Origin: an uncultured Planctomycetaceae bacterium
GTDB taxonomy: Bacteria; Planctomycetota; SZUA-567
Assembly (NCBI GenBank): GCA_964460225.1
Contig: CAYWTJ010000001.1
Location: 1-40,387, forward strand
Length of the DNA: 40,387 nucleotides
Direction: 5' to 3'
A program made the position numbers and the translations under genes. How positions within the stretch are numbered: the first letter of the stretch is position 1; each line of letters opens with the position of its first letter. The notes beneath the pieces were generated by a model. That model was not told where the DNA came from, made no database searches, and was given only the letters and a program-made list of their open reading frames with translations. Shown piece by piece: positions 9,571 to 34,066 of this stretch.

Positions 9571-9607
9571 AAGTCTCCTCCCGATCTGGTTGAAGTGATG
9601 GAGCCAG

Positions 9608-13840: not shown

Positions 13841-13872
13841 GGTTGTCATCGCATTCGAAACCGCAGAACCGT

Positions 13873-16546: not shown

Positions 16547-16570
16547 TACAGGTTGCGCAACACAATCCGA

Positions 16571-17070: not shown

Positions 17071-17766
17071 TCAGCTCTTCCAGATCGTATAAAGTCCCGC
17101 AAGAATCACCAATATTCCGCACACCTTTTTCAGCCAGACCGCGCCGCTGGAGCGCTCATTCCAGTGTAGATAATGCTGTACTATTTCGGAAAAAGTCCCG
17201 GCGAAAATAATCACCAGACAATGCCCGACGCCAAATAGCAACGGAAGCAACATTGCATGGAGCAGACTGGAAGGGGCAATTTTAAAAGCTGCGGCCATGA
17301 TCGGCCACAGATAGCCGAAGGTGCATGGCCCAAGTGCAATCCCGAACACCAGGCCCAAAACCAATGCTCCGAGCACTCCGCGCGTCTTTACGCCGCTGAC
17401 ATTCGCGCCCTTGAAGGGGTTGCCGACCACATCAAGAAAGTGTAGACCGACCAGAACAAAAACAACGCCGACAATGTAGCTGCCCCACGGGCCGATGTCC
17501 CCCGCCATGCCGCCCAGAAACGAGGTGATAATTCCGATCAGGGCGATTGTGGCAAGAATTCCGGATGCGAAAACGGTGGACAACCAGCAGGCCCGGCGGG
17601 TACTGAGATCGCCTTGCTCATCAATGTAACCGACGATTAGCGGAATACTCGCCAGATGGCACGGGCTGAGAAGTACGCTGAGGAGGCCCCAGACGAAAGC
17701 GGCGGATAAACCAATCCACCAAACGCCGTCCACCGCCCTGGTCAGACTGGTAAATAATTCGTCCAT
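17071..17766 (-). CDS. CcdA/DsbD-family transmembrane thiol-disulfide electron transporter (cytochrome c biogenesis protein transmembrane region)
   Basis: 6 TM. Conserved Cys in TM1 (LLSPCHLASIPL) and TM4 (LGPCTFGYLWP). Confidence 0.8.
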   Translation of the reverse strand: MDELFTSLTRAVDGVWWIGLSAAFVWGLLSVLLSPCHLASIPLIVGYIDEQGDLSTRRACWLSTVFASGILATIALIGIITSFLGGMAGDIGPWGSYIVGVVFVLVGLHFLDVVGNPFKGANVSGVKTRGVLGALVLGLVFGIALGPCTFGYLWPIMAAAFKIAPSSLLHAMLLPLLFGVGHCLVIIFAGTFSEIVQHYLHWNERSSGAVWLKKVCGILVILAGLYTIWKS

Positions 17767-17784
17767 CTTGTTTCCTTTTTTCGG

Positions 17785-18582
17785 TTAGAACTGATAACCG
17801 AGTTCCGCCCACTTCTTGACGATATCTTCCTCCGGGAAGTAGCCGTTGTTCCGGAACAACTCTTTGCCATTTGGATCGAGAAACACCTGCGTCGGAATCG
17901 TGCTGACCTTGAAGGAATTCGCAATGTCGCCCCTGAGTTCAACATTGTAGAACTCAGCAGAAAGTTTATCCTTGTACTTCGCCTGCAACGCCTGCAGCAC
18001 CGGCTCCATCATCTTGCACGGCACGCAGGTGGTGGAACCGAACTCCAGCATCCGGGGAAGCCGCTTGCCTTCCGCGTTTACGGCGTATTGCTGGAAATCC
18101 TGATTGTTATCCGGTGTCCCCTTTTGAGACTTGAATACCAGCAAGGCGACCACAACAACGGCGACCAGCACCAACACGATGGTTTTTCCGATCTCACTTT
18201 TTTTCTCGCCAGAAGCATCCGAAGCGCCGCCGCAACCGCAGTCTACACGTTCCGCTCTCGACTCAGAAAGACAGCCGCACCCACATTCCTCTTTCGGCGC
18301 TCCAGCAGCACCGGAACACGCCTCGGGAGACTGTCCGCCTTCTTTGGCGGCAGCAAGTAATAAATCCTTGATTTTATCCGGATCAAGCACTCTGCCCGCG
18401 CTTTCCACCCTGCCGTTGATCGCCAAGCCGGGTGTGCTGATGATTCCGAACGCAGAAATATCGCTCAGTTCCGTCACCTTCTCGATCTGGCAATCAAGCC
18501 CGGCCAGACGCGCCGCCACGGCGGTATTCTCGGCAAGCTGTTTGCACTTCGGGCATCCGGTGCCCAAAATCTGTATCAACAT
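17785..18582 (-). CDS. fused double thioredoxin-family protein: N-terminal small redox-active disulfide protein (CPKC), a Cys-rich linker, one TM, and a C-terminal thioredoxin domain (CVPC)
   Basis: MLIQILGTGCPKCKQLAENT...; linker CGCGC...CGCGG; TM IVLVLVAVVVVALLVF; TCVPCKMMEPV. AAGGAGA RBS. 18 nt downstream gap to CcdA. Confidence 0.7.
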   Translation of the reverse strand: MLIQILGTGCPKCKQLAENTAVAARLAGLDCQIEKVTELSDISAFGIISTPGLAINGRVESAGRVLDPDKIKDLLLAAAKEGGQSPEACSGAAGAPKEECGCGCLSESRAERVDCGCGGASDASGEKKSEIGKTIVLVLVAVVVVALLVFKSQKGTPDNNQDFQQYAVNAEGKRLPRMLEFGSTTCVPCKMMEPVLQALQAKYKDKLSAEFYNVELRGDIANSFKVSTIPTQVFLDPNGKELFRNNGYFPEEDIVKKWAELGYQF

Positions 18583-18693
18583 TGTTGTCTCCTTTTCTTG
18601 AATCAATGCGCGCAACAACCAATCCGCTCTGCATATAGGAAATACCCTTCAGCGCCGGAAAAAGAACAACAACCGTCCGCAACTTCCCGCGCA

Positions 18694-19068
18694 TCACGCG
18701 AGAGCCTTTTCAGCTACCGCGCACAACTTGTCGATATTGGTGTCATCCACTGACGTGCTGCCCTTTGCCAAACCGAGGTCGGCGAGCTGAATGTGTTCAA
18801 ACTTTGTGAATCCCGCCTGCTCCAGAGAAGCCTTGACGCAATTGAGCGGACAGCCGTCGATGGCAACAATCTTCTCCGCCGACTCGGTGGTCTTCAAGAT
18901 CCCCGGAACGCGGCCGCCGATTCCGGCGAGGCAGAACATCTTGCCCTTGCCTTCGCGGGTGAGCTTGCGCGCAGCCTGATCCGCCACCGCGCCCACGTCT
19001 GCCGCGCCCGAACAGGCAAAGATCAACTTGACGCCGCCGCCGCAACCGCACCCTGTGTTCTCAGCCAT
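18694..19068 (-). CDS. DGC-domain protein (putative metal-binding, ars-cluster associated)
   Basis: KIVAIDGCPLNCV is the DGC motif. N-terminal CGCGGG and a FACSGAADVG Cys-rich segment. Confidence 0.7.
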   Translation of the reverse strand: MAENTGCGCGGGVKLIFACSGAADVGAVADQAARKLTREGKGKMFCLAGIGGRVPGILKTTESAEKIVAIDGCPLNCVKASLEQAGFTKFEHIQLADLGLAKGSTSVDDTNIDKLCAVAEKALA

Positions 19069-19219
19069 TTTAACTCTCCTTTGAAATAGGGCGAACTCAT
19101 TGTACCACCGCAACGTTCACCAGGTACCAATATTTTGGCTCAAGCGCGTCCGTCCAAGGGAGTTGCTCGTTCCTCCACGCGGACATGGATTGACTCGCCT
19201 TGCAGAGCAGGAAATTCCA

Positions 19220-20764
19220 TTAAAACCACGCCCCATAGGCAATGCCGCTGATGGTTGCCATACCGATTACCAGTGACACAAACACGAGTGTTTTCTTCGT
19301 ACCCATCACATTACGGATCACGAGCATACTCGGTAAGCTGAGTGCAGGTCCCGCCAGCAGAAGCGCCAATGCCGGGCCTTTGCCCATACCCGCCCCGATC
19401 AGCCCCTGCAGAATCGGCACCTCCGTCAGGGTGGCAAAGTACATAAACGCCCCGAAGACACTGGCGAAGATGTTCGTCCAGATCGGCCAGACCGAACGAA
19501 TGAAGTCCTGCATGCCGCCCGTCTCCATCTTCATAACAGAAAAGAAAACGTCCGGACTGTCGCCGACCAGCATCTGCACATAAATCCCCGGAATAAAGCC
19601 CTCATGCCCCGGCCGGCCAAGCAGAAAACCGGAGATCACAACGCCAATCAACAGCAGCGGGATCATCTGTTTGGCGAAGCCCCAACTCGCCCCGAACCAT
19701 TCGCCGCCCTCGCCTTTATCGGTGGCAAGAATCCAGCAAAGGCCAAGAATGCCCGCAGAAAAAGGCAGCAGCACCCAGACCCCGGCGGTGGACGGCAACC
19801 ACAAAACCAGCGCAATAGCCGGGAGCGATCCAAGAAGCACCTTCCAGAACGGGACCGCAAACCAGAAGAGCAGAATCAACGCGAAGAGCACAACGAAGCC
19901 CGCCGTGACCAGCCATTTGCTCTGCCAGATGCTGGTCCACGTTCCCGGCATCGGAGTCTTCGAGAGAAGATCAGCGACGGCAATTTTTACTTCTGTTCCC
20001 TTCTGGTCGCCATCGAGAAGCGTTACTCCATACGCCGCGCTGGCTGTCTGCCCGCCCTCCGGCGCGCTGATGATCGCCGCGTGAATCACTTTCCCGTCGC
20101 GGGTGAGGAACTGATAGTCATTGGGCGCACCCCAATTGGCGAATACCAGCACCCCGACCATAACCAGAAAGAATGCCGCATTGTGCCAGAGCGGACGTTT
20201 TACCTCCACGGACGCAACATTCCCCTGCGCCTCAGCCTTCGCTGCTTCTTCCTTCCGGAAAAACAGATGCATCAGCAGACCGATGATCACCGAAAATACG
20301 ATCGCCCCCACAGCGCGCGCCACCCCGATCTCCAGCCCCAGAATCCGGGCCGTCAGGATGATCGCCAGCACGTTAATCGCCGGGCCGCTGTAGAGAAACG
20401 CACATGCCGGACCCAACCCCGCGCCCCGTTTCCAGATCCCGGCAAACAGCGGCAGAATCGTACAGGAGCAGACCGCCAGTAAGGTTCCCGATACTGCCGC
20501 CACACCGTAGGCCAGCGGTTTGTTCGCACACGGCCCAATGTATTTCATCACGGCATCTTTACTGACGAAGACGCCAATCGCGCCGGCAATAAAGAAGGCC
20601 GGAACCAAGCAGAGCAGGATGTGCTCCCGCGCGTACCACTTCAAAAGCGCCAGCGACTCCATGAGCGACCGGTCAAACCGATCCCACCCGATAGGGAGAT
20701 AAAAGCAGGCCAAAAAAAGGGCGATCAGCACGGCCGCCCATTTCCCCTCTTGCTTCCAATCCAT
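19220..20764 (-). CDS. permease of the DUF318/ArsP-like family with a large soluble insertion (514 aa)
   Basis: Multi-TM. LAVCSCTILPLFAG resembles the TPFcSCS..P motif of ArsP-type organoarsenical permeases. A roughly 110-aa hydrophilic insert sits mid-protein. Confidence 0.7.
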   Translation of the reverse strand: MDWKQEGKWAAVLIALFLACFYLPIGWDRFDRSLMESLALLKWYAREHILLCLVPAFFIAGAIGVFVSKDAVMKYIGPCANKPLAYGVAAVSGTLLAVCSCTILPLFAGIWKRGAGLGPACAFLYSGPAINVLAIILTARILGLEIGVARAVGAIVFSVIIGLLMHLFFRKEEAAKAEAQGNVASVEVKRPLWHNAAFFLVMVGVLVFANWGAPNDYQFLTRDGKVIHAAIISAPEGGQTASAAYGVTLLDGDQKGTEVKIAVADLLSKTPMPGTWTSIWQSKWLVTAGFVVLFALILLFWFAVPFWKVLLGSLPAIALVLWLPSTAGVWVLLPFSAGILGLCWILATDKGEGGEWFGASWGFAKQMIPLLLIGVVISGFLLGRPGHEGFIPGIYVQMLVGDSPDVFFSVMKMETGGMQDFIRSVWPIWTNIFASVFGAFMYFATLTEVPILQGLIGAGMGKGPALALLLAGPALSLPSMLVIRNVMGTKKTLVFVSLVIGMATISGIAYGAWF

Positions 20765-20817
20765 GGCGCTTTTCCTTTGCTTATTGGCAAATTGGCAAAT
20801 ATACGGCTTTAAAAGGA

Positions 20818-20835
20818 ACCGTGCTGGTCAGCACG
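20818..20835. promoter_or_regulatory. perfect palindrome CCGTGCTGgtCAGCACGG between arsR and the permease gene, next to a tandem TTGGCAAA x2
   Basis: Seen in sequence. Could be an intercistronic hairpin/attenuator or a protein-binding site. Confidence 0.3.
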
Positions 20836-20904
20836 GAAGATTGACCGCTTCCTATTTACAGGCCTCTCGGTTCATGACCGTCCGATCAGTGCGCTCAACT
20901 GGCC

Positions 20905-21225
20905 CTAATGATGAATGGCCAACAGCTCGCGGATGTTTTCCGAGATCATGGAGTCCACGCAATCCATAAACTTCAGGACGCAACGCGCTTGCAGTGTATA
21001 AAAAACCATCAAACCGCGCTTTTCATCGCGGATGATCCCGGCCTGCTTCAGCACAGAAAGATGCTTGCTGACCGTAGACTTGTCGGCACCGATCATTTCG
21101 GTCAGTTCGCAAAAACACTTTTCGCCAGTAGCCAAGACACTGACCACCAGAACCCGGCTGGGATGCCCCAGCGCCTTAAATACATTCGCCTTTGCTTCCA
21201 GACGGGCATATTCTTTTCGGTCCAT
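20905..21225 (-). CDS. arsR: ArsR/SmtB-family metalloregulator
   Basis: FKALGHPSRVLVVSVL...CFCELTE...TVSKHLSVLKQAGII is a winged HTH with a Cys pair in helix 3. GAAGGGGGGGG RBS. Internal start of track ORF. Confidence 0.85.
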   Translation of the reverse strand: MDRKEYARLEAKANVFKALGHPSRVLVVSVLATGEKCFCELTEMIGADKSTVSKHLSVLKQAGIIRDEKRGLMVFYTLQARCVLKFMDCVDSMISENIRELLAIHH

Positions 21226-21248
21226 TGCGCCCCCCCCCTTCTCGTGTT

Positions 21249-21288
21249 CGTTTGTTGGCATTATAGCAAACAAACGCGCCTTAGTCAA
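21249..21288 (-). promoter_or_regulatory. arsR operon promoter (TTGACT-17-TATAAT) with an 8-bp inverted repeat CGTTTGTT/AACAAACG flanking the -10. Putative ArsR operator.
   Basis: The minus-strand reading is TTGACTaaggcgcgtttgtttgcTATAATgccaacaaacg, about 30 nt upstream of the arsR ATG. Confidence 0.5.
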
Positions 21289-21670
21289 GCTTTCCGGGCT
21301 TTTTTTTCGGCGGCCCCTCTTCACCGGCAATCTCAGTCGTAAGACAGACAACAGAGTACGGCCGGCCTCTCAACCATTCCTTCTGCGTGCCATGCGCACG
21401 CCCCGTCAAAATTCACGTTCCCATTATTTCCGCCTGCAATAACAGACTTACGCTATTCCCGCCCTTGCGTGTCATGGCATGAATTCGGACAAAAAAAAGC
21501 CGGCGGCGCCTACAAAAAAGAAATGCAAAAAAAATACGGATGTGTTAGCATACCTTTACTTGCCGGGCAGGATCGATTCAACCTTCTCCGTTCTGCCGGT
21601 TCCGCCGGCGGACTCGTCCGCTTGAGCGCGGCAGGTGTTTGGTTATTGCATTCTTGCATAAGGGGCGATC

Positions 21671-22009
21671 ATGACCGTACTCAATCAGGAAACCGCTCTG
21701 ACCAATGCCAGCAACGACCCGGAATTTCTCGCGGAAATCGCCGTAATGTTTGTTGAGGATGCGGCGGTGGAGCTGAACGGCCTGCAAACTGCGATCGCGG
21801 CAGGCGATCCGGAACAAATCCGCTTCCATGCGCATACGTTGAAAGGGATGGCGGGCAACCTCGGCGGGGAGGAGCTGCATCTGGCCTGTCTGGAGGCGGA
21901 AACCGCCGGCCGCAACGGCGACATTGCGGCGGCGTCCACAGCCCTGCTCCGCATCCAGAGCGCCCTCAGCAGTTTTAACGAGGAACTCAAGCGCTACTGC
22001 AAACTCTAA
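21671..22009 (+). CDS. Hpt (histidine phosphotransfer) domain protein
   Basis: [13 protein letters not shown] is the Hpt active-site His motif. 112 aa all-helical. AAGGGG RBS. Confidence 0.8.
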
Positions 22010-22073: not shown

Positions 22074-25064
22074 ATGACGAATGAACGCACACAAGACGGA
22101 CGCCGCAATCTGGCCGTTCTTTTGGTCCTGATTCCGCTCCTCTTCGCTTCCTTCGCCCTCTGCTGGCGGCAGTGGCGCCAGGAGTACGCCGACTTCCAGC
22201 GCAGCGCAATGGAAATCCTGCATCTGCGCCAGCACAGCATCATCCGTCAATTGCAGTATTCCCTGCAGGGGATGGAGAGCGATCTACGCATTATCACCAA
22301 CTCCAACGATCTGGCAGACTATCTGAACGCCCCGACCATGGAAAGCCGCCAGAATATTGAGCGTCTGTTTACGAATATCGCCCTTTCACGCGGAAATTAC
22401 CACAAAATCCGCCTCCTCTCCCCCGAAGGCCTGGAATTGACCGGGGTGGTCAGCGACCGGGGCATGACGCACCCGATTCCCGCCGCGGAACTGACGGATC
22501 GCTCAAGCCGGCCGTTTTTCAAGGAAATCCTGAAGTCGCCGGAAGGCCGGACGTTCTTCTCGGAGCTGGATCTGAATGTCGAAAACGGGGTCATCGAAAA
22601 TCCGGCGCGGCCGATTCTGCGCATCGGCGTTGTGCTGCGCAATCAAACGCGGAAGATCATCGGCGTACTGATTTTGAACTATCAGGCAACCCCGATCATA
22701 GAAGCGCTGCAACCGGAATCGGCCAATCCCCCCGCGCAAACGGAATCCTATCTTCTCAACCGCCGGGGCGGATGGATCGGCGGCGGCGACGACCGCTGGA
22801 TGGCATTCCTGAACAATCCCTACCAGACCTTCGGCAACGAGTACCCCTCCTTCTGGAGCGATATGCAGCAATCGCCCGAGGGCATCCTGACCGCCCCCGA
22901 CGGCAGCATGGCTCTCTACCACACCTTTTATCCGCAGCATCCGCAGACCAATGAGGTCGACAACGACTATTTCTGGAAGCTGGTCGGCCTGCTGCCGGCC
23001 AAAACCGCACAGGCCGCAAATCAGACATTGCGCTCGCGCTGGGGCGCGGTATTTCTCGTGATCGCCCTCCTCTCCACGACCGGCGCGCTGCTGTATCTGC
23101 GCTCCCGCAAGTGGATCATCCGGCTCAGCACGGATCTGGAACACGAGCGCCACCGCCAGCGCTCCGTCTTTAACGCCAGCCCCGACCTGATTCTGCTCCT
23201 GCGCGGGCAAACCATCATCACCGCCAACAAGACCGCCTGCCGGGAATTCGGCCTGAGCGAGGAAGAACTGACCGGCATGGAGTTCAACGTCTTTGTTCCG
23301 GGCTATACCGACCCGGCCCAGCCCGTCGGCACACGCGATACCTGGGGGTTCAGCCACCCCGAAGGACAGCTCTCCGTCGAACTGGACATTCACCGTCCAG
23401 ACGGCTCGGTTTTTCCCGGCTCGATCAGCACTACCGCCCTCGACGCCGCCCGCGACCTGCACTGCCTTTTTATCCGCGACATCACCGAACGCAAGAGCGA
23501 CGCGCGCGCACTTCAGATCCGCGAGCGCCACTACGACTTCTCCCTGCGCGCCGCCGGCGCCTGCAGTTGGGAGTATGCCCCCGGTGAATCCAGTCTGGTC
23601 GTTTCGCCCCACATCTACGACATTACCGGCTACATTCCCGACGAACTTTGCACCGTGGAACAGCTTTTCTCGCACATTCTTCCCGCAGATGTTGAATATA
23701 TGCAGCGGCTGTTCCGGGAACTGGAAGCAGAACCCTGCGAACGGAGCATGGAGTACCGCTTCCGCACCAAAAGCGGCGAGGAAATCTGGCTCTATTCCTG
23801 CGGCCGCAGCATTGACGACGAAGAGGAAGGCGGCAAACGCATCTGCAACGGCATCACCTACGACATCACCGAGCGCAAGCGGCTGGAGGCGTCGCTTCTT
23901 GAAGCGCGGGAACGCGCCGAACAGGCCGGTCAGGCCAAAGCCGAATTCCTGGCCAATATGTCGCACGAAATTCGCACCCCCATGAACGGCGTCATCGGCA
24001 TGTCCGACCTGCTGATGACCACCGAAATGACCGTCGAACAGCGCGAGTATGCCACGACCATCCGGCGTTCGGGCGAGACCTTGCTGCAATTGATTAATGA
24101 TATCCTCGACTACTCCAAGATCGAAGCCGGCCGGCTGGAACTGGAGAACAAGCCCTTCTCCCTGCGGGATCTCGTGTTGCACGGCCAGAAAATGCTGCAG
24201 GCGAAAGCGGCCGAGAAAGGGGTGGATCTTGTCGCCACGTATGCCTCGACCTTGCCGGAATACTTCTTCGGCGACCAGTTGCGGATGACCCAGATCCTGC
24301 TCAATCTCCTGAGCAATGCCGTCAAGTTTACCGCAGCCGGCTCCGTCCGCATCAGCGCCTTCCCGGCGGAGGAAATGACCGGCGAAAGCAAAATCCTCGT
24401 CTGTCTGGAGATCCGCGATTCCGGCATCGGCATGGACGAGGCGGCCTTGAAGAAGCTCTTCCAGAAATTCACGCAGGCGGATGCTTCCACGACCCGGCGC
24501 TTTGGCGGCACCGGCCTCGGGCTTGCCATCAGCAAAAACCTCTCCCATCTGATGGGCGGCGACATCACCGTCACCAGCGAACCCGGAAAAGGTTCGGTCT
24601 TTACCGTCAAAATCCCGCTGGTAATCGCGCAAAAACCCGCGCAGGAGGAGGCCGACCCGCTGTTCGAAGTCCTGGAAGACTGCGCCAGCAAGCAGCTCCT
24701 GCTGACCGAAGATAACCGCATGAACCAACGGCTGGCGATGCGCATGCTGGAAAAAATTGGCCTCCGAGCCGATCTTGCGGAAAACGGACTGCAGGCCGTA
24801 AAAATGGCGGGCGAAAAAGCCTATGACCTGATCTTCATGGATATGCAGATGCCGGAAATGGACGGCTTGCAGGCGACGGAGCGGATCCGGTTGGAAGAGA
24901 CAGCCAGTCACCGGCACGCCATTGTCGTAGCCATGACCGCCAACGCCCTCGAAAGCGACCGTCAAGAATGCATCAAAGCGGGAATGGATGACTTCATCAC
25001 AAAGCCCATAACGTTACAAAGCCTGAAAATAACGTTAACAAAATGGCTTAAACGCGCCAAATAA
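22074..25064 (+). CDS. hybrid sensor histidine kinase: 2 TM flanking a periplasmic sensor domain, PAS domains, HisKA, HATPase_c, and a C-terminal receiver
   Basis: H-box [21 protein letters not shown] boxes [16 protein letters not shown]. Receiver [11 protein letters not shown]...[14 protein letters not shown]...K. The start is placed at ATG 22074, which avoids overlap with the Hpt gene. Confidence 0.85.
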
Positions 25065-25140
25065 GCACCTTTTTATTACACAACAAATGCAGAGTATTTC
25101 TTTTTTCGATACAACCATTTTTTACGCAAGTTTTATGATC

Positions 25141-25169
25141 TTGCATAAAACGTTAGGAAAACCTATACT
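25141..25169 (+). promoter_or_regulatory. sigma70-like promoter TTGCAT-17-TATACT upstream of the STAS gene, in an AT-rich tract with interleaved inverted repeats
   Basis: cTTGCATaaaacgttaggaaaaccTATACTtgcg. The nearby sequence caagTTTTATGatCTTGCATAAAA forms inverted repeats. Confidence 0.4.
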
Positions 25170-25253
25170 TGCGTAGATTTCGGGGGTTGCCGATTGTCGA
25201 TGCGCTCCCCGCGCTGGTGCGCGAATGCCGAGTACTCGTACACAGGAACACGG

Positions 25254-25754
25254 ATGAGCGAAGAACATTACATTGAGGTCGCCACCTCGGGCGCGGACGC
25301 CCTGATCAAGATCACCGGATTGGCGGACATGCACCTTGCTCCGACGCTGGATGACCTGACGATTATGCTTGCCCGCGAAGGATGCTGCCATCTGGCGATC
25401 GACCTCTCCGCCTGCACGGGCATGGACAGCACCTTCATGGGAACGCTCATCAGCATCAATGTGCGCTATTCCGAGGACAATCACTGGATGTGCCTGATTA
25501 ACGTCACGCCCGACAACCAGTCGCTGCTGAAAATGCTGGGGGTATGGGGAATGGTGCAGGTCCGGGAAAACTTCGACATCCAGCCGGTCAAGACGGCCAA
25601 GATCCGCCCGCCGGCGGAGGATTTTGCCGAACGGCGAATGCAGATCGTCGCGCAGGCCCACCAACGCCTGATCGAAATCAGCGCGGACAACCAGGAGCGC
25701 TTCGGCCCCTTCCTCGACGCGCTTCGCAGTTCCCTGCGCGACCAGCAGGATTAA
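25254..25754 (+). CDS. STAS-domain protein (anti-sigma-factor antagonist-like)
   Basis: LIKITGLADMHLAPTLDDLTIMLAREGCCHLAIDLSACTGMDSTFMGTLISI has the STAS/SpoIIAA topology. AGGAAC RBS. Confidence 0.7.
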   Translation: MSEEHYIEVATSGADALIKITGLADMHLAPTLDDLTIMLAREGCCHLAIDLSACTGMDSTFMGTLISINVRYSEDNHWMCLINVTPDNQSLLKMLGVWGMVQVRENFDIQPVKTAKIRPPAEDFAERRMQIVAQAHQRLIEISADNQERFGPFLDALRSSLRDQQD

Positions 25755-25782
25755 CTTCAGAGCCGTCTGCCCACACGACCGC

Positions 25783-26427
25783 TTAACGGCGCGTGATCCG
25801 CAGCCACCAGCACTCAAGCGCCTGCCGGGGATTCCCTCCGGCAGGCGCTCTGATGAGCGGCGCGCTGCAAGCCCGGGCGCATTCACCGACAATCCCCTCC
25901 GGGGACGCAGGCTTGGATATTGCTCCAGCGACAGGAAGCGCAGACGCACCGTCCGGCACCGGCAATTCCACCCGGCAACCGGGCGAAAGGCGGGAGCAGA
26001 GCTTTTCCGTGAACGCCCGCAACTGCGCCTCGCTGTCGAAGAAATTTTTACCGATCCGGAACTTCCCGGCCGGAGTTTCAATCCCCAGAGCATCGTCCTC
26101 ATACACGCGAATCACCTGCTCCACCTCAATCCGACGGTTCCAGAACAGGCCGGGAATCGTGATCCGGTTGCCGACGAGTCCCGGCTGCGGCCGCAGACGG
26201 AAGAAAATCCGCCCCAACCGCAAAAGCGCAGAGGCCCCCGCCGCACCGCAAAAAATTAACAGAATAACCCCGATCGCGTCGGCCTGAAATAACAAGTACC
26301 AGCAGAGCCAACCAAATCCGGCCGCTACCACCATGCACATACCCACCGCCCCCGCCACGGCGGCTGGCGTGCGGCGGACATAGGTGCAATCCCTCTTTCT
26401 CCGGAGTCGTTCGGAATGTGAACGCAT
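25783..26427 (-). CDS. membrane protein with a bacterial PH-like (bPH_2/YdbS-like) domain
   Basis: Internal ATG with AAGGAGGGG RBS. A TM hairpin is followed by a beta-rich ITIPGLFWNRRIEVEQVIRV...GKFRIG. The track ORF N-terminal extension overlaps hydS and was rejected. Confidence 0.5.
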   Translation of the reverse strand: MRSHSERLRRKRDCTYVRRTPAAVAGAVGMCMVVAAGFGWLCWYLLFQADAIGVILLIFCGAAGASALLRLGRIFFRLRPQPGLVGNRITIPGLFWNRRIEVEQVIRVYEDDALGIETPAGKFRIGKNFFDSEAQLRAFTEKLCSRLSPGCRVELPVPDGASALPVAGAISKPASPEGIVGECARACSAPLIRAPAGGNPRQALECWWLRITRR

Positions 26428-26506: not shown

Positions 26507-28252
26507 TTAACTGGTTCCTTCGTCCTCCGACGCCACCGGGGGATTAGCGTAGTCCTCCGCCAGCGAACGGAGCAGAATCTCTGTCTCGGCCATATTCTCG
26601 CCCAGCTCGGCGGCGATGCTCTGAACGGTTTCGAGATTTTTCTTGATGACCTGCCGCGCGCGGTTGGCAATCTGCTCGCGCCGCTGGCCGGGGTCGGTAA
26701 TGTCCATCAGGAGCATGCCCGCCACCTGCCCCGGATCAATGGTAAAGACCCGGACCTCCAGAATCTTGTCAAACGCCCGCAGGGACTCCCGGTGCTGATC
26801 CTGCCCCGTCTGCAGATTCTCCCGGATAAGGTCCGAAAACGGCAGCATTTTCTTGAGGTTGGCCCCCTCCATTCCGGGGTTGGCCTCCCACAACAATTGC
26901 GCCTCCTCGCCGACAAGGTCCGCAAACGCCCGATTGCACTCGATGATGTGCAGATTCGCGTCCGCCACCACCACCCCGGACGGAATGCAGCGTAAAAGCG
27001 CATTCGCCTTCTTTTGCGCCTGCTTGCGCAGAAAGCTCAGGCACATGCACTGCTCGGCTCGGCCGTCAAGCAGCGCATTGGCGAACTCCCGGCAACAGTC
27101 GTAACCGCATCCGCCGCAATTAAGCTCATCCTCGGGACCTGATTTGCCAACCTTCAGCAAGGCTCCCCGAATCTCCTCCTCCGTGTGCTCCTCACTCGTT
27201 AACGGGGCGGCCGGTATCGCACCGGCAACCGGCACGCCGTCGCCGGTGCGGGGCAGCCCCTCCTGCGGAACCGCCTCCGCATCGCGGGAGGCAAGGACGT
27301 TGAGCAGGCCCGGGCGGCCGTCGCTCATGCAGGGACCGTTGATGCAACCGCCGCTACAGGCAAGCACCTCAAGGAACACCTTCTCCTTCAAATCGTCGTC
27401 CCTCAATCCCCGCAGAGCGCGCTCCATCTCGGTCAACCCCGATACGGTCACGCACCGGAAGCCCTCAATTCCGCGGCTCTTGAGGGTGCGCAACATACCG
27501 CCCTCCACCGGGTACAACGCGCCGTCGACCGCCCGCTCCGGCACGAAGGAGCAGTCGCCTTGCGGATAGACCCGCTCGGGAGTAATGCGGGCAAGCTTGA
27601 GCCAACGGCGAAGATCCTCAAAGGTGAGCGCGGCATCAAGATCCTGCGCGAAGGCATCCGATTCGGTCTTTTTGGCAATGCAGGGACTAAAGAAAACCAC
27701 GCCGATCTCCGGCCCGAAGCTCTTGCGCAAAAGCTGGCAATGCGCCATCACCGGCGAAAAGATCTCCGTAATCCGCCCCGCCAGTTCCGGCAGATATTTG
27801 CGGATAAACGCCGCCGCCGCCGGACAAGCCGAGGAAATGAAGAGATTCCCCGGCTTTCCGGGCAACTCGTCCGCCAGCCGCTGCGATACCATCTGAGCGC
27901 CAAGGGCGGTTTCGCTTACCCCGGAGAAGCCCAACTGGCGCAGGGTTTGCACCATTTTTTCCGGCGACACTCCGGGAAAGTCGCTCACCCAGGACGGCGC
28001 AAGAGCCGCGTATATCGCCCGCCCCGAACCGAGCAGTTCCTGCACCTGCGGCAGATCGTCCCGAACCCGCTTGGCGTCGTTGGGACAGACCGAAACGCAA
28101 ATTCCACACGAAACGCAGCGCTCGGCAATCACCGTCGCCCGCCCCTTCTCGACCCGGATTGCCTTCACCGGACAATTGCGCAGACATTTATAGCAATCCT
28201 GACATTCGGTGATCTCCGTGTACACCGGCGACCGGCCATCATTCTTCATCAC
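26507..28252 (-). CDS. sensory-type [FeFe] hydrogenase (HydS/HfsB-like): 2x[4Fe-4S] ferredoxin, a variant H-cluster domain, an extra Cys4 cluster, and a C-terminal PAS domain
   Basis: CxxCxxCxxxCP x2 at the N-terminus. H-cluster motifs are altered exactly as in sensory hydrogenases: L1 FISSACPAA (proton-relay Cys replaced by Ala), L2 FSPCIAKKTE (Met replaced by Ser), L3 EVLACSGGCINGPC (Met replaced by Leu). Followed by CGGCGYDCC and a PAS-like C-terminus (VVADANLHIIECNRAF...). Confidence 0.8.
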   Translation of the reverse strand: MMKNDGRSPVYTEITECQDCYKCLRNCPVKAIRVEKGRATVIAERCVSCGICVSVCPNDAKRVRDDLPQVQELLGSGRAIYAALAPSWVSDFPGVSPEKMVQTLRQLGFSGVSETALGAQMVSQRLADELPGKPGNLFISSACPAAAAFIRKYLPELAGRITEIFSPVMAHCQLLRKSFGPEIGVVFFSPCIAKKTESDAFAQDLDAALTFEDLRRWLKLARITPERVYPQGDCSFVPERAVDGALYPVEGGMLRTLKSRGIEGFRCVTVSGLTEMERALRGLRDDDLKEKVFLEVLACSGGCINGPCMSDGRPGLLNVLASRDAEAVPQEGLPRTGDGVPVAGAIPAAPLTSEEHTEEEIRGALLKVGKSGPEDELNCGGCGYDCCREFANALLDGRAEQCMCLSFLRKQAQKKANALLRCIPSGVVVADANLHIIECNRAFADLVGEEAQLLWEANPGMEGANLKKMLPFSDLIRENLQTGQDQHRESLRAFDKILEVRVFTIDPGQVAGMLLMDITDPGQRREQIANRARQVIKKNLETVQSIAAELGENMAETEILLRSLAEDYANPPVASEDEGTS

Positions 28253-28345
28253 GCCATCCCGTCAAAGTAGTTACACGATTGCCCGCACACACACACCAAT
28301 GCCCCGGCGGACCCATGCACCGCGATCATACCCCTCCGTCACTTT

Positions 28346-28457
28346 TCACGCAAACAAGAAAAATGCCCACACCCCAATGGCGCGCATAGGCGCATTGCGC
28401 CAGAAAACAGACCGCCGCAAAAACATTAAAACAATTACTGATATCACGCAAACAAGA
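28346..28457. repeat. two copies of the 14-nt direct repeat TCACGCAAACAAGA, 98 nt apart, in the hydS-rex divergent intergenic region
   Basis: Seen in sequence at about 28346-28359 and 28444-28457. Confidence 0.4.
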
Positions 28458-28572
28458 CCGCGCACGCGAAATTGCAGTCCCCGGAAAATTGGGCGCAAAC
28501 GAGAAAACATCGAATGCCATTACTAACTGATATACAACAGGTTAAATGCATTGCAAACTATATCTGAGGTTT

Positions 28573-28626
28573 TCGTGAAATATTTCTCCAAAATCTCTTG
28601 ACTTACCTTGATTGTCGGTGTATATA
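28573..28626 (+). promoter_or_regulatory. Rex-box-like site TCGTGAAatatTTCTCCA abutting a sigma70-like promoter (TTGACT-17-TATATA) upstream of rex
   Basis: Compared with the Rex consensus TTGTGAAnnnnTTCACAA, the half-sites match 6/7 and 5/7 with correct spacing. The promoter follows immediately downstream. Confidence 0.35.
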
Positions 28627-28824
28627 GAGATTAAATTACTGAAAAACTGCGGGCTGGAGTACAGTTTCTGATGGCAGTTCGGCGGGTGGCCCCAGCCGGA
28701 TGAAGCGATAAAGGATTCGGCGGCTGCGTGCGCAGGAGATGGCACGTGCTGCGGGTGCGGCAACATCACCCGGTTACTTATGGTTCGAGAAATTGTGATC
28801 TTCAACAAAGGAGAGCTCTCCCCG

Positions 28825-29520
28825 ATGACCCAGCACACCGGCGAACGAGGCGACGACGAAAACGCCAGCTCCGCACCAGTGCCGACACTGCGCAGGCTCC
28901 CGAAATATTTGGAGTATCTGCGTGGACTGCGGGTTCACGGAGATGCGCATGTCTCCTGCACCCAGATCGCCGGGGCGCTTGACCTCGTGCCGACGCAGGT
29001 TCGCAAGGATCTGGCCTGCACCGGCATCGTGGGCAAACCCAAAAAAGGCTATCCCGTCTTCGCCCTGATGTCCTCCATCGAGGATTTTCTGGGCTGGAAC
29101 AATCCCCGCGACGCATTTCTCGTTGGCGCCGGCGCGCTTGGTACGGCCATTCTCGGCTACGAAGGTTTCCGTAATAACGGCTTGAATATCGTCGCTGCCT
29201 TTGATACCGATACCTCGAAGATCGGCACCCGTATCCGCGGCGTCGAAGTTCTCCCCCTCGATAAGCTCGAAGAGCTCACCCGCCGGATGCGCATCCTCAT
29301 CGGCGTGATGACCCTGCCCTCGCAATATGCGCAGGCCGTTACAGATATTATGGTTCGCGGCGGCATCCGGGCCATCTGGAACTTCACCCCGGCGCGGGTG
29401 GTCGTACCGGAAGAGGTAATCCTTGAAAACGCGCAACTGACCTCCAGTTTTGCGGTTCTTAGCAGCAAGCTTCGCCAGACGATTTATCAGGAACGGGAAG
29501 CCGAACGCCAGCAGTCCTGA
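28825..29520 (+). CDS. rex: redox-sensing transcriptional repressor Rex
   Basis: PTLRRLPKYLEYLR, a winged-helix with VSCTQIAGALDLVPTQVRKDLACTGIVGKPKKGY, and a Rossmann LVGAGALGTAILGY...NIVAAFDTD. AAAGGAGAG RBS. Internal ATG of track ORF 28780. Confidence 0.85.
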   Translation: MTQHTGERGDDENASSAPVPTLRRLPKYLEYLRGLRVHGDAHVSCTQIAGALDLVPTQVRKDLACTGIVGKPKKGYPVFALMSSIEDFLGWNNPRDAFLVGAGALGTAILGYEGFRNNGLNIVAAFDTDTSKIGTRIRGVEVLPLDKLEELTRRMRILIGVMTLPSQYAQAVTDIMVRGGIRAIWNFTPARVVVPEEVILENAQLTSSFAVLSSKLRQTIYQEREAERQQS

Positions 29521-29694
29521 GTACATGAAGCGCATCCCCAGGACCGCGCCGGGGATGAAAGAAATCGGAGCGCGGAATCATAGAGTCGAAATACGGAGAT
29601 GGTAGCATCGGACTTGAAGCGTAACACAGTCTGAACAACCCTGTCGGAATCAAACCGGTCTGCGGTAAACAACCGAAAAAAGCGGTGTCTTCCT

Positions 29695-29829: not shown

Positions 29830-30321
29830 ATGCCGGCAGTAGAGGAAGACATGGCGGAGGTCGTCGCCATTCTCGACAGGTTCGAACGCAATGCATCCAA
29901 ACTCATCCCGATTCTCGCCGCAATTCAGGAGCATTACCGTTATCTGCCGGCGAAGGCGATGGCCGTGACGGCGGAACTGCTGGGCATGCCGGCGGCGAAG
30001 ATTTACGGCGTGGCGACCTTCTACGCCCACTTTGCGCTGGAGCCGAAGGGCAAACACGTGATCCGCGTCTGCGACGGCACCGCCTGCCACGTCAAGGGTT
30101 CGACCAAGATTATCGATGCGCTCTACGAGCGTCTGGGCGTCAGTGCGGAAAAGAAGACCAGCAAAGACCTGCTCTTCACGGTCGAAACCGTATCCTGCCT
30201 CGGTGCCTGCGGCCTTGCGCCGGTCATGCTGGTGGACGACGAGGTATATGGACAAGTGAAGCCTGAAAAGGCGCTCGCCCTCGTTGAAGAAATCCTCAAG
30301 ACGACTGCGGCTGCGAAGTAA
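29830..30321 (+). CDS. hydC: NuoE-like [2Fe-2S] thioredoxin-like ferredoxin subunit of multimeric [FeFe] hydrogenase (HydC/HndA-type)
   Basis: CDGTACHVKG...VSCLGACGLAPV 2Fe-2S motif. AAGGAG RBS. Confidence 0.85.
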   Translation: MPAVEEDMAEVVAILDRFERNASKLIPILAAIQEHYRYLPAKAMAVTAELLGMPAAKIYGVATFYAHFALEPKGKHVIRVCDGTACHVKGSTKIIDALYERLGVSAEKKTSKDLLFTVETVSCLGACGLAPVMLVDDEVYGQVKPEKALALVEEILKTTAAAK

Positions 30322-30376
30322 GCGCGCCGCAACGGCCTCACTGATTTGAACAACCTTTTGAGAAAGGCATATACGA

Positions 30377-32275
30377 ATGTCCACTGTCATCGATCTTGAC
30401 AAAATCGCCGCCGAATACAAAGCGGCGGAAAAGAATGTCGCCCGCCGGATCGTGATCTGCGCCGGCACCGGCTGCGTCGCCAACGGCTCCCTGAAGGTAT
30501 ATGATGCCTTCATCCGTGAGCTGAAAAAGAACAACCTCGATGTTATCGTCGACCTCGATAAGCACGACTGCTCCAAGAAAGGCGTCAACTACATTTCCCA
30601 TAGCGGCTGTCAGGGATTCTGCCAGCAGGGTCCGCTGGTCCACATCGCGCCCGACGATCTGCTTTATGTGAAGGTCACCGCCGACGACGTAGCCGAGATC
30701 GTCGAAAAGACCTTCAAGGCCAATCAGGTCGTGGAGCGCCTGCTCTACGTCAACCCGGCCACCGGCAAGAGCCATCAGGGCGATCACGACATTCCGTTCT
30801 ATACCCGCCAGAAGCGGCTGATCATGAAGAACTGCCGCATCGAGCCCGGAAGCATTCACGAGTACATCGCCGTCGGCGGTTATTTCGGCGCCCGCAAGGC
30901 TCTGCTGCAGATGACCTCCGCCGATATTTGCGAAGACGTCATCAAGAGCGGCCTGCGCGGACGCGGCGGCGGCGGCTTCCCGACCGGTCTGAAGTGGAAG
31001 CTCACCCTGCCGAACAAGGCGGAGACCAAATACATCATCTGCAACGGCGACGAGGGCGACCCCGGCGCGTTCATGAACCGCTCCGTTCTGGAGGGCAACC
31101 CCCACAGCGTGATCGAAGGGATGATCATCGCCGGCAAGGCGATCGAAGGCACCGAGGGCTACGTATACGTCCGCGCGGAATACCCGCTGGCCGTGCAGCG
31201 CATGAAGCGCGCGGTGGCCGACGCCGAGAAAGCCGGTGTGCTGGGCGAGAACATCTTCGGTTCGGGGATGTCGTTTAAGATCCACGTCATGGAAGGCGCG
31301 GGCGCGTTCGTCTGCGGCGAGGAAACCGCTCTGATCGCGTCGATCGAAGGCCAGCGCGGCATGCCCCGCCCGAAGCCCCCGTTCCCGGCCCAGAAGGGTC
31401 TGTGGAACAAGCCGACGGTCATCAACAACGTCGAGACGCTCTCCTCCATCGGCCGGATCATCACCGACGGCCCCGATGCGTTCCGCACCTGCGGCACGGA
31501 AAAGTCCCCCGGCACCAAAACGTTTGCCCTGACCGGCCACGTTGCGAACACCGGCCTGATCGAAGTGCCCTTCGGCACCACCCTGCGCGAGATTGTGATG
31601 GAAATCGGCGGCGGCGTGACCGATGACGATGGCAATCTCACCGGCGAGTGCTTCAAGTCGGTGCAGATCGGCGGTCCTTCCGGCGGCTGTCTGACCGAAG
31701 AGATGCTCGACCTGCCCCTCGACTACGATTCCCTGCGCTCAGTCGGCGCAATGGTCGGCTCCGGCGGTCTGGTTGTGATGAACAAGCAGACCTGCATGGT
31801 GAAGATGGCGAAGTTCTTCATGCAGTTCACACAGAACGAATCCTGCGGCAAGTGCGTGCCCTGCCGCGAAGGCACCAAGCAGATGCTGGCGATGCTGGAG
31901 GATATCACCAAGGGCGAAGCGACCGACGAGACGCTTAAGACCCTTGAGGAACTGGCGAAGGCGGTGGCGAAGGCCTCGCTCTGTGGCCTCGGCAAGACCG
32001 CGCCCAACCCGGTGCTCTCAACCTTGCGTTACTTCAAGGATGAATACATCGCGCACGTCCGCGACAAGCGCTGTCCCAGCGGCCAATGCAAGGATCTGGC
32101 GATGCCGGAGATTCTGGCCGACAAGTGCAAGGGCTGCACGGCATGCGTCCGCAAGTGCCCGGTGGGCGCGATCAGCGGCGAAGTGAAGAAGCCGCACGTG
32201 ATCGACGCGAGCAAGTGCATCAAGTGCGGCGCCTGCGCGGCGGCCTGCAAGTTCGGCGCGGTGGTGGGTGTCTGA
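30377..32275 (+). CDS. hydB: NuoF-like NAD(P)H-binding flavoprotein subunit of multimeric [FeFe] hydrogenase (HydB/HndC-type), with an N-terminal 2Fe-2S domain and C-terminal 2x[4Fe-4S] ferredoxin
   Basis: GRGGGGFPTGLKWK (NADH/FMN site). ESCGKCVPCREG (4Fe-4S). C-terminal CKGCTACVRKCP and CIKCGACAAAC. Confidence 0.85.
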   Translation: MSTVIDLDKIAAEYKAAEKNVARRIVICAGTGCVANGSLKVYDAFIRELKKNNLDVIVDLDKHDCSKKGVNYISHSGCQGFCQQGPLVHIAPDDLLYVKVTADDVAEIVEKTFKANQVVERLLYVNPATGKSHQGDHDIPFYTRQKRLIMKNCRIEPGSIHEYIAVGGYFGARKALLQMTSADICEDVIKSGLRGRGGGGFPTGLKWKLTLPNKAETKYIICNGDEGDPGAFMNRSVLEGNPHSVIEGMIIAGKAIEGTEGYVYVRAEYPLAVQRMKRAVADAEKAGVLGENIFGSGMSFKIHVMEGAGAFVCGEETALIASIEGQRGMPRPKPPFPAQKGLWNKPTVINNVETLSSIGRIITDGPDAFRTCGTEKSPGTKTFALTGHVANTGLIEVPFGTTLREIVMEIGGGVTDDDGNLTGECFKSVQIGGPSGGCLTEEMLDLPLDYDSLRSVGAMVGSGGLVVMNKQTCMVKMAKFFMQFTQNESCGKCVPCREGTKQMLAMLEDITKGEATDETLKTLEELAKAVAKASLCGLGKTAPNPVLSTLRYFKDEYIAHVRDKRCPSGQCKDLAMPEILADKCKGCTACVRKCPVGAISGEVKKPHVIDASKCIKCGACAAACKFGAVVGV

Positions 32276-32314
32276 GCCGTTCATCAACAAAATTAACCTA
32301 TAAGGATATTCAAC

Positions 32315-34066
32315 ATGACCACAACTGAGAAGAAAACCCTGACGGTGGACGGCCAGGTGGTGGAAATCGGCAACGAACGCAACCTGCTGGAATTGATCCG
32401 CCGCGTCGGCATCAACCTGCCCACCTTCTGCTACCACTCCGACCTGAGCATCTACGGCGCGTGCCGCCTGTGCCTCGTCGACGTCGAAAAGCGCGGCATC
32501 ATGGCCTCCTGCTCGACCGCGCCCGAGGCCGGGATGGTCGTCCAGACCAACACCGAAGAAATCCGCCAGATGCGCAAGATCACCATCGAGCTGCTGCTGG
32601 CCAACCACAAGCGCGAATGCCCCACCTGCGAACGGAGCAACAACTGCTCCCTGCTGACCCTGTCGCGTCAGTTGGGCGTGGATACCGTCCGCTACAAGAA
32701 CCGGACCGCCGAAACCCCGCTTGACTTCTCGAGCCCGTCGCTGGTCCGCGATCCCAACAAGTGCATTCTCTGCGGCGATTGCGTCCGGATGTGTTCGGAA
32801 GTTCAGGGCATCGGCGCGATCGACTTCTCCTTCCGCGGCTCGAAGTCCTGCGTCTCTCCGGCGTTCGACAAGGACCTCGGCGACGTTGAATGCGTCAACT
32901 GCGGCCAGTGCGCGCAGGTCTGCCCGACCGGCGCTCTCGTGGTCCGCTCGCAGCGTGACGCGGTGTGGAAGGCGATCAACGACCCGAAGAAGACCGTGGT
33001 CGCGCAGATTGCTCCGGCTGTCCGCGTCGCCATCGGTGAATACTTCGGCATCGAGCCGGGCACCGACTGCACCGGCCAGATGGCTACCGCCCTGCGCCTG
33101 ATGGGCTTTGACGAGGTGTACGACACCAGCTTCGCGGCCGACATGACCATTCTGGAAGAGGCCAACGAGCTGCTCGGGCGCGTGAAGGAAGGCAAGAACC
33201 TGCCGCTCTTCACCAGCTGCTGCCCCGGTTGGGTGAAGTTCGTCGAGACCTATTACCCCGAACTCAACGCGAACCTCTCCACCTGCAAGAGCCCGCAGCA
33301 GATGTTCGGCTCGGTGGCAAAGAAGATGCTGCCCGAGAAGCTCAAGGTCAAGCGCGAAGACCTCGTGGTCGTCTCGATCATGCCCTGCACCGCGAAGAAG
33401 TTCGAGGCCGGCCTCGACAAGTTCAAGACCGAAGGGCAGCCGGACGTCGATTTCGTCATCACCACGCAGGAACTGGCGCGTATGATTAACGGCCGCGGCA
33501 TTGAGTTCAAGAGCCTTGAGCCGAGCTCCCTCGACATGCCGATGGGCTTCTATACCGGCGCGGGCGTGATCTTCGGCGCGACCGGCGGCGTGATGGAAGC
33601 GGCGCTGCGCTACGCGGCTGGCGTCGTCAACGGCGTCGACGGTGGTTCGCTGCAGTTCCAGGCCGTGCGCGGCTTCGAGGGAATCAAGGAAGCGACCGTC
33701 AACCTCGGCGGCACAGACGTTCAGGTTGCCGTCGCGCACGGGCTGAAGAACGCCCGCAAGCTGGTGGAAGCAATCAAGAGCGGCGAGAAGAGCTATCACT
33801 TCATCGAGATCATGGCCTGCCCAGGCGGCTGCATCGCCGGCGGTGGCCAGCCGCAACTGGACAAGGTCACCAAGGCCAAGAGCAAGGCCGCGCGCGCCAA
33901 GGGGCTTTACACCTCCGACCGCGTGCTGCAACTGCACAACTCCGGCGACAACACCATGGTTCAACAGGCGTACGACAAGTGCCTGCACGGCGGCATCGGC
34001 GGGCACGACGCGCACACCGCGCTGCACACCTGCTACCAGAACCGCTGCGATCTGCTCAAGCCGTAA
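32315..34066 (+). CDS. hydA: [FeFe] hydrogenase catalytic subunit HydA (2Fe-2S, His-ligated 4Fe-4S, 2x4Fe-4S, H-cluster)
   Basis: Canonical H-cluster motifs FTSCCPGWVKF, MPCTAKKFE and EIMACPGGCIAGGGQP. N-terminal CYHSDLSIYGACRLC and HKRECPTCERSNNC. AAGGA RBS. Confidence 0.9.
   Translation: MTTTEKKTLTVDGQVVEIGNERNLLELIRRVGINLPTFCYHSDLSIYGACRLCLVDVEKRGIMASCSTAPEAGMVVQTNTEEIRQMRKITIELLLANHKRECPTCERSNNCSLLTLSRQLGVDTVRYKNRTAETPLDFSSPSLVRDPNKCILCGDCVRMCSEVQGIGAIDFSFRGSKSCVSPAFDKDLGDVECVNCGQCAQVCPTGALVVRSQRDAVWKAINDPKKTVVAQIAPAVRVAIGEYFGIEPGTDCTGQMATALRLMGFDEVYDTSFAADMTILEEANELLGRVKEGKNLPLFTSCCPGWVKFVETYYPELNANLSTCKSPQQMFGSVAKKMLPEKLKVKREDLVVVSIMPCTAKKFEAGLDKFKTEGQPDVDFVITTQELARMINGRGIEFKSLEPSSLDMPMGFYTGAGVIFGATGGVMEAALRYAAGVVNGVDGGSLQFQAVRGFEGIKEATVNLGGTDVQVAVAHGLKNARKLVEAIKSGEKSYHFIEIMACPGGCIAGGGQPQLDKVTKAKSKAARAKGLYTSDRVLQLHNSGDNTMVQQAYDKCLHGGIGGHDAHTALHTCYQNRCDLLKP

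Follow-up and report, generated by a model that had tools for sequence, protein, structure and literature searches.

The window analysed here is the whole of a 40,387-nucleotide stretch of DNA from an uncultured Planctomycetaceae bacterium (contig CAYWTJ010000001.1), and the gene under study is hydS (26507..28252, reverse strand), which encodes a putative H2-sensing [FeFe] hydrogenase of the M2f architecture (2x[4Fe-4S], H-domain, Cx2Cx4Cx16C, PAS). Divergent from hydS, on the forward strand, lie rex (28780/28825-29520), hydC (NuoE-like, 29830-30321), hydB (NuoF-like, 30377-32275) and hydA (32315-34066), all assigned with Pfam. The rex product, a redox-sensing repressor, scores 275.7 bits on the NCBIfam Rex equivalog (cut-off 130), and the true start of its gene is probably the ATG at 28825, behind AAAGGAG. 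HydA carries the canonical TSCCP, MPC and EIMAC motifs in alignment, and hydCBA (29830-34066) is a trimeric group A [FeFe] hydrogenase encoded in one operon. An earlier reading of the same DNA, made from its letters alone (hereafter the sequence-only reading), had placed hydS head-to-head with rex and a trimeric hydrogenase, and the Pfam and NCBIfam searches bore this out. As HydA clears the NCBIfam model NF040763, 'NADH-dependent [FeFe] hydrogenase, group A6', by a narrow margin (768.3 bits, cut-off 765), the label 'bifurcating' for hydCBA is an assumption, and between bifurcating and NADH-only chemistry of HydABC the sequence cannot decide.

The hydS open reading frame comprises 581 codons when counted from a GTG. 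Its start is likely the ATG one codon inward, at 28249, which gives a product of 580 amino acids, and an identical 580-residue protein is present in a public collection (P0001). In Pfam, residues 16-60 match 2x[4Fe-4S] Fer4 dicluster models, with the motifs CQDCYKCLRNCP and CVSCGICVSVCP, residues 80-307 match Fe_hyd_lg_C (E=7e-42), residues 377-404 match the FeS domain PF04060 (25.2 bits, cut-off 23) and residues 418-455 match PAS_8 (26.7 bits, cut-off 21.8); a PAS_4 match on residues 423-516 falls below its cut-off. The additional Cys4 motif and the C-terminal PAS domain noticed in the sequence-only reading are therefore both supported above the family cut-offs. The extra cysteine motif, CGGCGYDcC-x16-C, fits Cx2Cx4Cx16C, the C-terminal cluster motif that defines M2e and M2f enzymes (PMC8163306), and neither the first cysteine of its 'CC' nor the cysteine of 'QCMC' is conserved among relatives.

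Alignment with group A enzymes also confirmed the substitutions SSACP, SPC and EVLAC, from which the protein had been called HydS-like. In L1, FISSACPA of HydS aligns with FTSCCPA/S of the HydA of T. maritima (7p5h_A) and the HydA1 of Thermoanaerobacter (8a6t_A), and also with LFTSCCPG of the window's own HydA, to which HydS is 30% identical (E=1e-23). The L2 segment FFSPCIAKK is matched by FMPCTAKK (7p5h_A) and IMPCTAKK (window HydA), and the L3 segment FLEVLACSGGCING by IEVMACNYGCVGG (7p5h_A) and FIEIMACPGGCIAG (window HydA). Across L1 to L3 of the solved group A enzymes and the window HydA, all four H-cluster cysteines are kept in HydS. The proton-relay cysteine, C299 of CpI, is replaced by alanine, which stands opposite the first cysteine of TSCCP in four independent alignments, so that the canonical CC of L1 is not retained. 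In pairwise alignment leucine takes the place of E279 and R286 is not preserved, whereas S319 and E282 seem to have retained counterparts, an assignment that depends on the alignment.

HydS has more than 4,800 homologues at E<=1e-50. Fe_hyd_lg_C, PF04060 and the Cx2Cx4Cx16C motif occur in every one of the 120 closest homologues listed (120/120), and (S/T)ACP occurs in 106 of them, the pattern being unmatched in the remaining 14; alanine at the C299 position has been described for about 43% of sensory sequences (PMC10055695). Within the same 120 proteins, the position of M353 is occupied by glycine in 106 and by serine in 14, a set that includes the window HydS and its five nearest relatives, and the position of M497 is leucine wherever the motif was located. 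The PAS-less enzymes of group D (M2e) are described as having serine or threonine conserved at M353 (PMC8163306). The window HydS thus combines a TamHydS-like pocket (Ser/Leu) with the M2f architecture. On the NCBIfam group A models it scores 87 against a cut-off of 406, whereas the window's HydA passes. Judged by motifs and domains, HydS is a bona fide putative sensory group C (M2f) [FeFe] hydrogenase.

These features also bear on the alternative that HydS is no sensor and instead either works as a hydrogenase with slow catalysis or partners HydABC in electron transfer. The H-cluster ligands and the N-terminal clusters are all intact, TmHydS and TamHydS interconvert H+ and H2 at low rates, and one paper raises a metabolic function for a group C1 enzyme whose gene accompanies those of bifurcation subunits (PMC8542988). 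However, the equivalents of Cys299 and E279 are alanine and leucine in HydS, and the CpI variants C299A and E279A have <1% activity (PMC6226526). Conservation with HydS moreover extends to the PAS domain and, among relatives, to a phosphatase with a signalling role, and we consider this alternative improbable. The gene itself is intact and not decaying. Between the window and its 84% identical relative L084, dN/dS is about 0.10 for the whole of hydS and 0.064 for the FeS and PAS region, figures that are rough because dS is near saturation, and the FeS/PAS output region is under purifying selection.

The genomic company of hydS was surveyed in 80 loci from one scan of a genome collection (HydS 45-64% identical; Planctomycetota, Victivallales/Lentisphaerota, Hydrogenedentota and others, the nearest with a name being MAGs of Planctomycetota), by tblastn with every window protein and by clustering of the neighbouring open reading frames. 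Four further loci of closer relatives (L081-L084) came from a protein search, which gives 84 in all. Rex is encoded near hydS in 36 of the 80 loci, HydC in 35 and HydB in 29, and the synteny of rex and hydCBA with hydS is conserved. In 76/80 loci, a gap of 2-95 bp separates the end of hydS from a co-directional gene for a SpoIIE-type PP2C phosphatase of about 390 amino acids (Pfam SpoIIE, E=1e-13 for those of L001 and L002). Of the four exceptions, L032 and L057 are without it, L078 has its PP2C elsewhere in the locus, and L047 ends 151 bp after hydS and is uninformative. Among the closer relatives, L082 and L083 (HydS 68-69%) show divergent rex-hydC, then hydS, then PP2C. In addition, 45/80 loci (e.g., L005:9641-9892) have, immediately before hydS and in the same direction, the gene for a small NuoE-like [2Fe-2S] protein of about 85 amino acids with the signature ICMGSSCFARGN...C..C..GPN. 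The conserved cis partners of this HydS clade are the SpoIIE-type PP2C and the small NuoE-like [2Fe-2S] protein; a histidine kinase is not among them.

Two variations on this arrangement were seen in the survey. L043 holds two tandem hydS-PP2C pairs (6770-9639 and 10001-12909), the second HydS being 31% identical, and in about 14 loci (e.g., L033 and L037, at about 12.9-14.6 kb) the PP2C gene is followed not by hydCBA but by genes for a further small [2Fe-2S] protein and for a shorter [FeFe] hydrogenase of a different kind.

Both cis partners are missing from the window. A tblastn search with two PP2Cs gave no match, a profile hidden Markov model (HMM) of 73 PP2Cs, run with filters off (--max) against the six-frame translation of the window, gave nothing (best score -2.6 bits), and no SpoIIE, HATPase_c_2 or stand-alone receiver (REC) domain was found among the other window open reading frames scanned. 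A decayed PP2C pseudogene was likewise rejected at this sensitivity, as neither search left a trace of one in the 750-bp interval between hydS and the next gene on the opposite strand, which encodes a STAS-domain protein, or elsewhere. The small [2Fe-2S] protein is absent from the region upstream of hydS (28252-28780). In L081 (HydS 74%), a convergent acetyl-xylan-esterase-like gene lies 16 bp after hydS, and in L084 no PP2C starts in the 106 bp between the hydS stop and the contig end. As these two loci are also without an adjacent PP2C, the loss apparently characterizes the subclade immediately around the window.

The missing phosphatase could instead be ascribed to the assembly, with a chimeric join or the collapse of a region placed between hydS and the following gene, gapD, when the contig was assembled from a metagenome. 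The window coincides with an entire public contig of 40,387 bp, and no other locus shows the hydS-gapD junction. Nevertheless, L081 and L084 are two independent assemblies, and an absence shared with the nearest relatives argues against an artefact. The G+C content is continuous over the junction (0.61-0.64), and gapD is preceded by a ribosome-binding site of its own and forms a pair with the STAS gene, as in another locus, L085. We regard an artefact as extremely unlikely. The window hydS is mildly atypical, being without the cis phosphatase and the small ferredoxin, and is otherwise an ordinary member of a widespread family.

The place where relatives hold the PP2C gene is taken in the window by gapD (25783-26427, reverse strand), which separates hydS from the STAS gene and encodes a 214-amino-acid orphan for which two transmembrane helices are predicted near the N-terminus. 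The gene begins 80 bp past the stop codon of hydS, on the same strand, with an AAGGAGG ribosome-binding site. The same open reading frame is present in the public collection (P0165), and its product has no Pfam or NCBIfam match. An exhaustive HMMER search of 1.84 billion representative proteins found as its only homologue P0166, the product of a gene in L085 (1633-2154; 35% identity) that is likewise convergent with a STAS orthologue, and a word-indexed search returned gapD alone. The AlphaFold2 single-sequence model of the protein is of low confidence, with a pLDDT of 48.8 that would not sustain a fold search. From its sequence and setting, we describe gapD as a putative lineage-restricted gene in the PP2C position.

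Convergent with gapD and hydS is the gene for the STAS-domain protein (25254-25754, forward strand; Pfam STAS, E=2e-7), 166 amino acids of the anti-sigma-factor-antagonist type with a C-terminal extension. The predicted phosphorylatable motif IDLSACTGMDSTFMG (MDSTFMG; DS(S/T) type) is retained, and weak NCBIfam matches to SpoIIAA, anti-sigma antagonist and RssC models are all below cut-off. Orthologues were found at 59-91% identity, and six of their loci were read (L085-L090). In L085 (91%), the STAS gene is accompanied by a divergent pfkB, the convergent gapD homologue, DUF190-CBS and CrcB genes and a paralogous hydA'B'C', with no hydS, kinase or Hpt. In L086 and L087 (69%), PAP2 and a STAS-HATPase_c_2 fusion lie upstream (L087:3279-4547; the L086 counterpart is cut by the contig end and unannotated), and L088, a 1.6-kb contig with the same protein (69%), shows only an MreD-like gene beside STAS. 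A REC-HATPase_c_2 protein is encoded near the STAS gene of L089 (68%; 6412-7326) and a convergent STAS-HATPase_c_2 fusion beside that of L090 (59%; 4708-5964). As the conserved partners of the family are RsbW-type kinases, one of them receiver-coupled, the window STAS fits a partner-switch protein.

Both SpoIIE/RsbU-type PP2Cs and RsbW-type kinases have STAS proteins as their substrates, as in the pairs SpoIIE-SpoIIAA and RsbU-RsbV. The sequence-only reading had set a STAS switch against the PP2C/kinase pair as alternative outputs of HydS, but this is a false opposition, the STAS protein being what those enzymes act on. In L001 (HydS 64%, STAS 71%) the two even occur together: hydS is followed by PP2C and then by a convergent STAS gene, and the 3' ends of the latter two overlap by 4 bp. 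Neither an RsbW-type HATPase_c_2 kinase nor a PP2C is encoded in the 40-kb window, whereas both are found beside STAS orthologues elsewhere.

It could accordingly be proposed that HydS signals through a PP2C/STAS partner switch, with the PP2C encoded in trans here and STAS kept beside hydS. The gene order of L001 speaks for this, as do the same geometry of hydS and STAS in the window, with gapD in the PP2C position, the conserved DS(S/T) phospho-motif, the dephosphorylation of STAS proteins by SpoIIE/RsbU-type PP2Cs, and the RsbW-type HATPase_c_2 kinases beside the orthologues in L087, L089 and L090. However, a profile HMM found a STAS family member within +/-7 kb of hydS in only 1/80 loci, L001 itself. 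There is no STAS gene in L082, which runs 5.8 kb past its PP2C, and 4/6 STAS orthologue loci have no hydS. The window and L001 belong to related lineages, and their shared STAS-hydS adjacency may therefore be inherited synteny. On balance, we consider this route unlikely.

The pfkB and STAS genes are immediate neighbours in L085, whereas in the window they lie 18.5 kb apart in a different relative orientation, and the intervening 6.8-25.2 kb, absent there in L085, hold a low-G+C NACHT/resolvase island, an ArsR/permease/thioredoxin cluster, and the genes for a stand-alone phosphotransfer protein (Hpt) and a hybrid histidine kinase. A simple insertion of this segment relative to L085 was rejected because the orientation of pfkB is opposite, which points to rearrangement and not to a clean insertion. 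The island (6800-17000; G+C 0.41-0.55 against about 0.60 in the flanks) contains many domain-less open reading frames, a NACHT NTPase gene (7209-9491) and a resolvase-domain gene (12841-13551, reverse strand), and is probably a mobile or defence island. The co-directional cluster that follows it (17071-21351, reverse strand), just before Hpt, encodes an ArsR-family regulator, an ArsP-like permease, a DGC-domain protein, a double thioredoxin and a DsbD-like membrane protein. L085, for its part, has a second, paralogous hydABC (3984-8125, reverse strand; 41-47% identical to the window HydABC) at 2.4 kb from STAS-gapD, with CrcB and DUF190-CBS genes between and no rex.

The Hpt protein (21671-22009, forward strand; Pfam Hpt, E=9e-15) has 112 amino acids and an HTLKG motif. 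The hybrid histidine kinase (22074-25064, forward strand) was assigned from Pfam domains, transmembrane (TM) segments and an H-box at H639, and is organized as TM(10-28), dCache, TM(322-340), PAS, PAS, HisKA (H639), HATPase and REC. As its dCache domain lies between two TM segments, it is a membrane sensor with an extracytoplasmic ligand-binding domain of its own. The sequence-only reading had placed the Hpt, kinase and STAS genes immediately upstream of hydS; in fact they lie downstream of it, on the forward strand and convergent with it, with gapD intervening.

That reading went on to suggest a circuit in which HydS feeds its H2 signal into the adjacent Hpt/hybrid-kinase phosphorelay, which acts on STAS and replaces the PP2C/kinase output. 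The genes do lie within 5 kb of hydS, in a locus where the usual PP2C is missing, and the two cytoplasmic PAS domains of the kinase could in principle pair with the PAS domain of HydS. Among [FeFe] hydrogenases, HydDB distinguishes the classes C1 ('histidine kinase-linked'), C2 ('chemotactic') and C3 ('phosphatase-linked') (PMC5037454), and the recognition of a kinase-linked class speaks for the proposal. The REC-HATPase_c_2 protein near STAS in L089 would moreover allow, in principle, a route from Hpt through a REC-kinase to STAS, as in HptB-HsbR-HsbA (PMC5085249, PMC6482189).

The comparative evidence points the other way. Homologues of Hpt and the kinase are encoded near hydS in none of the 84 loci, a single weak kinase match in L074 being 24% identical and 5 kb off, and none occur near STAS in the six orthologue loci, including L085, where the 91% identical STAS gene abuts pfkB. 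A scan centred on the kinase was uninformative, the 80 metagenome loci that it returned matching only the generic core and REC (residues about 290 to 996, 34-50%), none of them the sensor region and none with STAS or HydS nearby. Among the loci examined, the kinase/Hpt pair occurs in the window alone. Conserved linkage of all three genes with hydS, which the sequence-only reading had itself named as a test, was found in no relative; STAS alone lies near hydS, in L001.

The arrangement of the genes is equally unfavourable to such a circuit. Hpt, kinase and STAS are convergent with hydS rather than co-transcribed, with gapD between, and the kinase has its own dCache sensor. Neither an adaptor (REC-PP2C or REC-kinase) nor a terminal response regulator is encoded in the window, whose sole REC domain is that of the hybrid kinase. 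An Hpt protein hands its phosphate to the aspartate of REC domains, not to STAS, and we know of no precedent for direct Hpt-to-STAS phosphotransfer. As the kinase gene is convergent, with gapD and STAS in between, and its position is unconserved, this is not a linkage of the C1 type. Instead, HydS sits inside a PP2C-linked clade and not a kinase-linked one. Judged by neighbourhood, the clade fits the description of C3, with the PP2C gene in 76/80 relatives, although no phosphatase is linked to hydS in the window. The phosphorelay as an output of HydS was accordingly not upheld, and we consider it very unlikely.

Comparison with characterized systems places HydS among the proposed H2 sensors. 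With TmHydS, compared here via its published description, it shares 2x[4Fe-4S], the H-domain, the C-terminal Cys4 motif, PAS, alanine at C299 and an adjoining trimeric group A hydrogenase, but TmHydS has glycine at M353 and serine at M497 where the window HydS has serine and leucine. With TamHydS, it shares M353S and M497L, Cx2Cx4Cx16C and a location upstream of a trimeric hydrogenase (PMC8163306). The defining difference is the PAS domain, which is absent from TamHydS (M2e) and present in the window HydS (M2f). HydS of Ruminococcus albus and HfsB of Thermoanaerobacterium also bear PAS domains and are proposed H2 sensors, whose signal would pass through neighbouring Ser/Thr kinases or phosphatases to the genes of fermentation and of hydrogenases, and Rex plays a part as well (PMC5707799). 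Deletion of hfsB is reported to have given a regulatory phenotype without loss of bulk hydrogenase activity (PMC5707799). Those Firmicutes operons hold a kinase or phosphatase in cis, whereas the window has neither. For the Hpt, kinase and STAS genes, the closest parallel is the HptB-HsbR-HsbA and RssB-RssC systems of Pseudomonas, which likewise group a hybrid kinase and an Hpt protein with an anti-sigma antagonist of the STAS type, and the alignment of the window STAS with the RssC model runs end to end, although its score is low (24 bits, cut-off 250). The connection between Hpt and STAS is made in Pseudomonas by HsbR or RssB (PMC5085249, PMC6482189). Such an adaptor (REC-PP2C-kinase in HsbR, REC-PP2C in RssB) is absent from the window, and in no relative does the trio recur as a unit.

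Other features of the window complete the map. The distant hydF that had been noticed from the letters is indeed present (4133-5479, forward strand; Pfam HydF_tetramer, HydF_dimer and MMR_HSR1), encoding the H-cluster maturase GTPase 21 kb from hydS. A search for the Rex operator TTGTGAAN6TTCACAA with <=3 mismatches gave no site in the window, the hydS-rex and rex-hydC gaps included, against about one expected by chance. The Rfam scan of the window found nothing in the hydS-STAS gap, its single match being a tRNA-Arg(TCT) (440-516, reverse strand) near the left end of the contig. Three reverse-strand open reading frames (25122-26102, 22503-24965 and 28774-29535) were rejected as genes because they have no domains; the matches of the first are only the antisense shadow of STAS.

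Taken together, the evidence favours an account, which we hold to be probable, in which HydS is an intact group C (M2f) putative H2 sensor of the PP2C-linked clade that signals to a partner encoded elsewhere, while Hpt and the kinase are independent of it. By analogy with TmHydS, R. albus HydS and HfsB, an H-cluster without the proton-relay cysteine would turn over slowly, and a protein partner would be informed of the H2 partial pressure by the C-terminal [4Fe-4S]/PAS module, the signal tuning the expression or activity of the adjacent rex-hydCBA hydrogenase. This partner would be encoded in trans elsewhere in the genome and would most likely be a PP2C. The Hpt and hybrid kinase would form an independent phosphorelay driven by the periplasmic dCache sensor and would abut the locus by chance. 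STAS would be a partner-switch component, and its link to HydS is possible.

Several points weigh against this account. Even TmHydS counts as no more than a putative sensor (PMC8924675), and the same holds for H2 sensing by members of the present clade. A partner in trans is an assumption, as the evidence is confined to a 40-kb contig, and the co-transcription of hydS with gapD, like any role of gapD, is putative. The dN/dS values carry the roughness noted above. In addition, STAS orthologues flank hydS in two lineages, those of the window and L001, and this adjacency could reflect function rather than inherited synteny. A combined scheme may also be imagined, in which STAS integrates intracellular H2 with an extracellular cue, being the substrate of a HydS-associated phosphatase whose cis gene was lost, and having come to lie behind the Hpt/dCache kinase pair; we think this quite unlikely.

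For the signalling of putative sensory [FeFe] hydrogenases, a 2026 study of TamHydS judged it critical to identify the interaction partners (PMC13104023). The main value of the present locus is comparative, in that it led to the conserved cis partners of the clade, and it does not thereby become a new kind of circuit. From this comparison, the PP2C and STAS proteins emerge as testable candidates for the relay of the signal from HydS.

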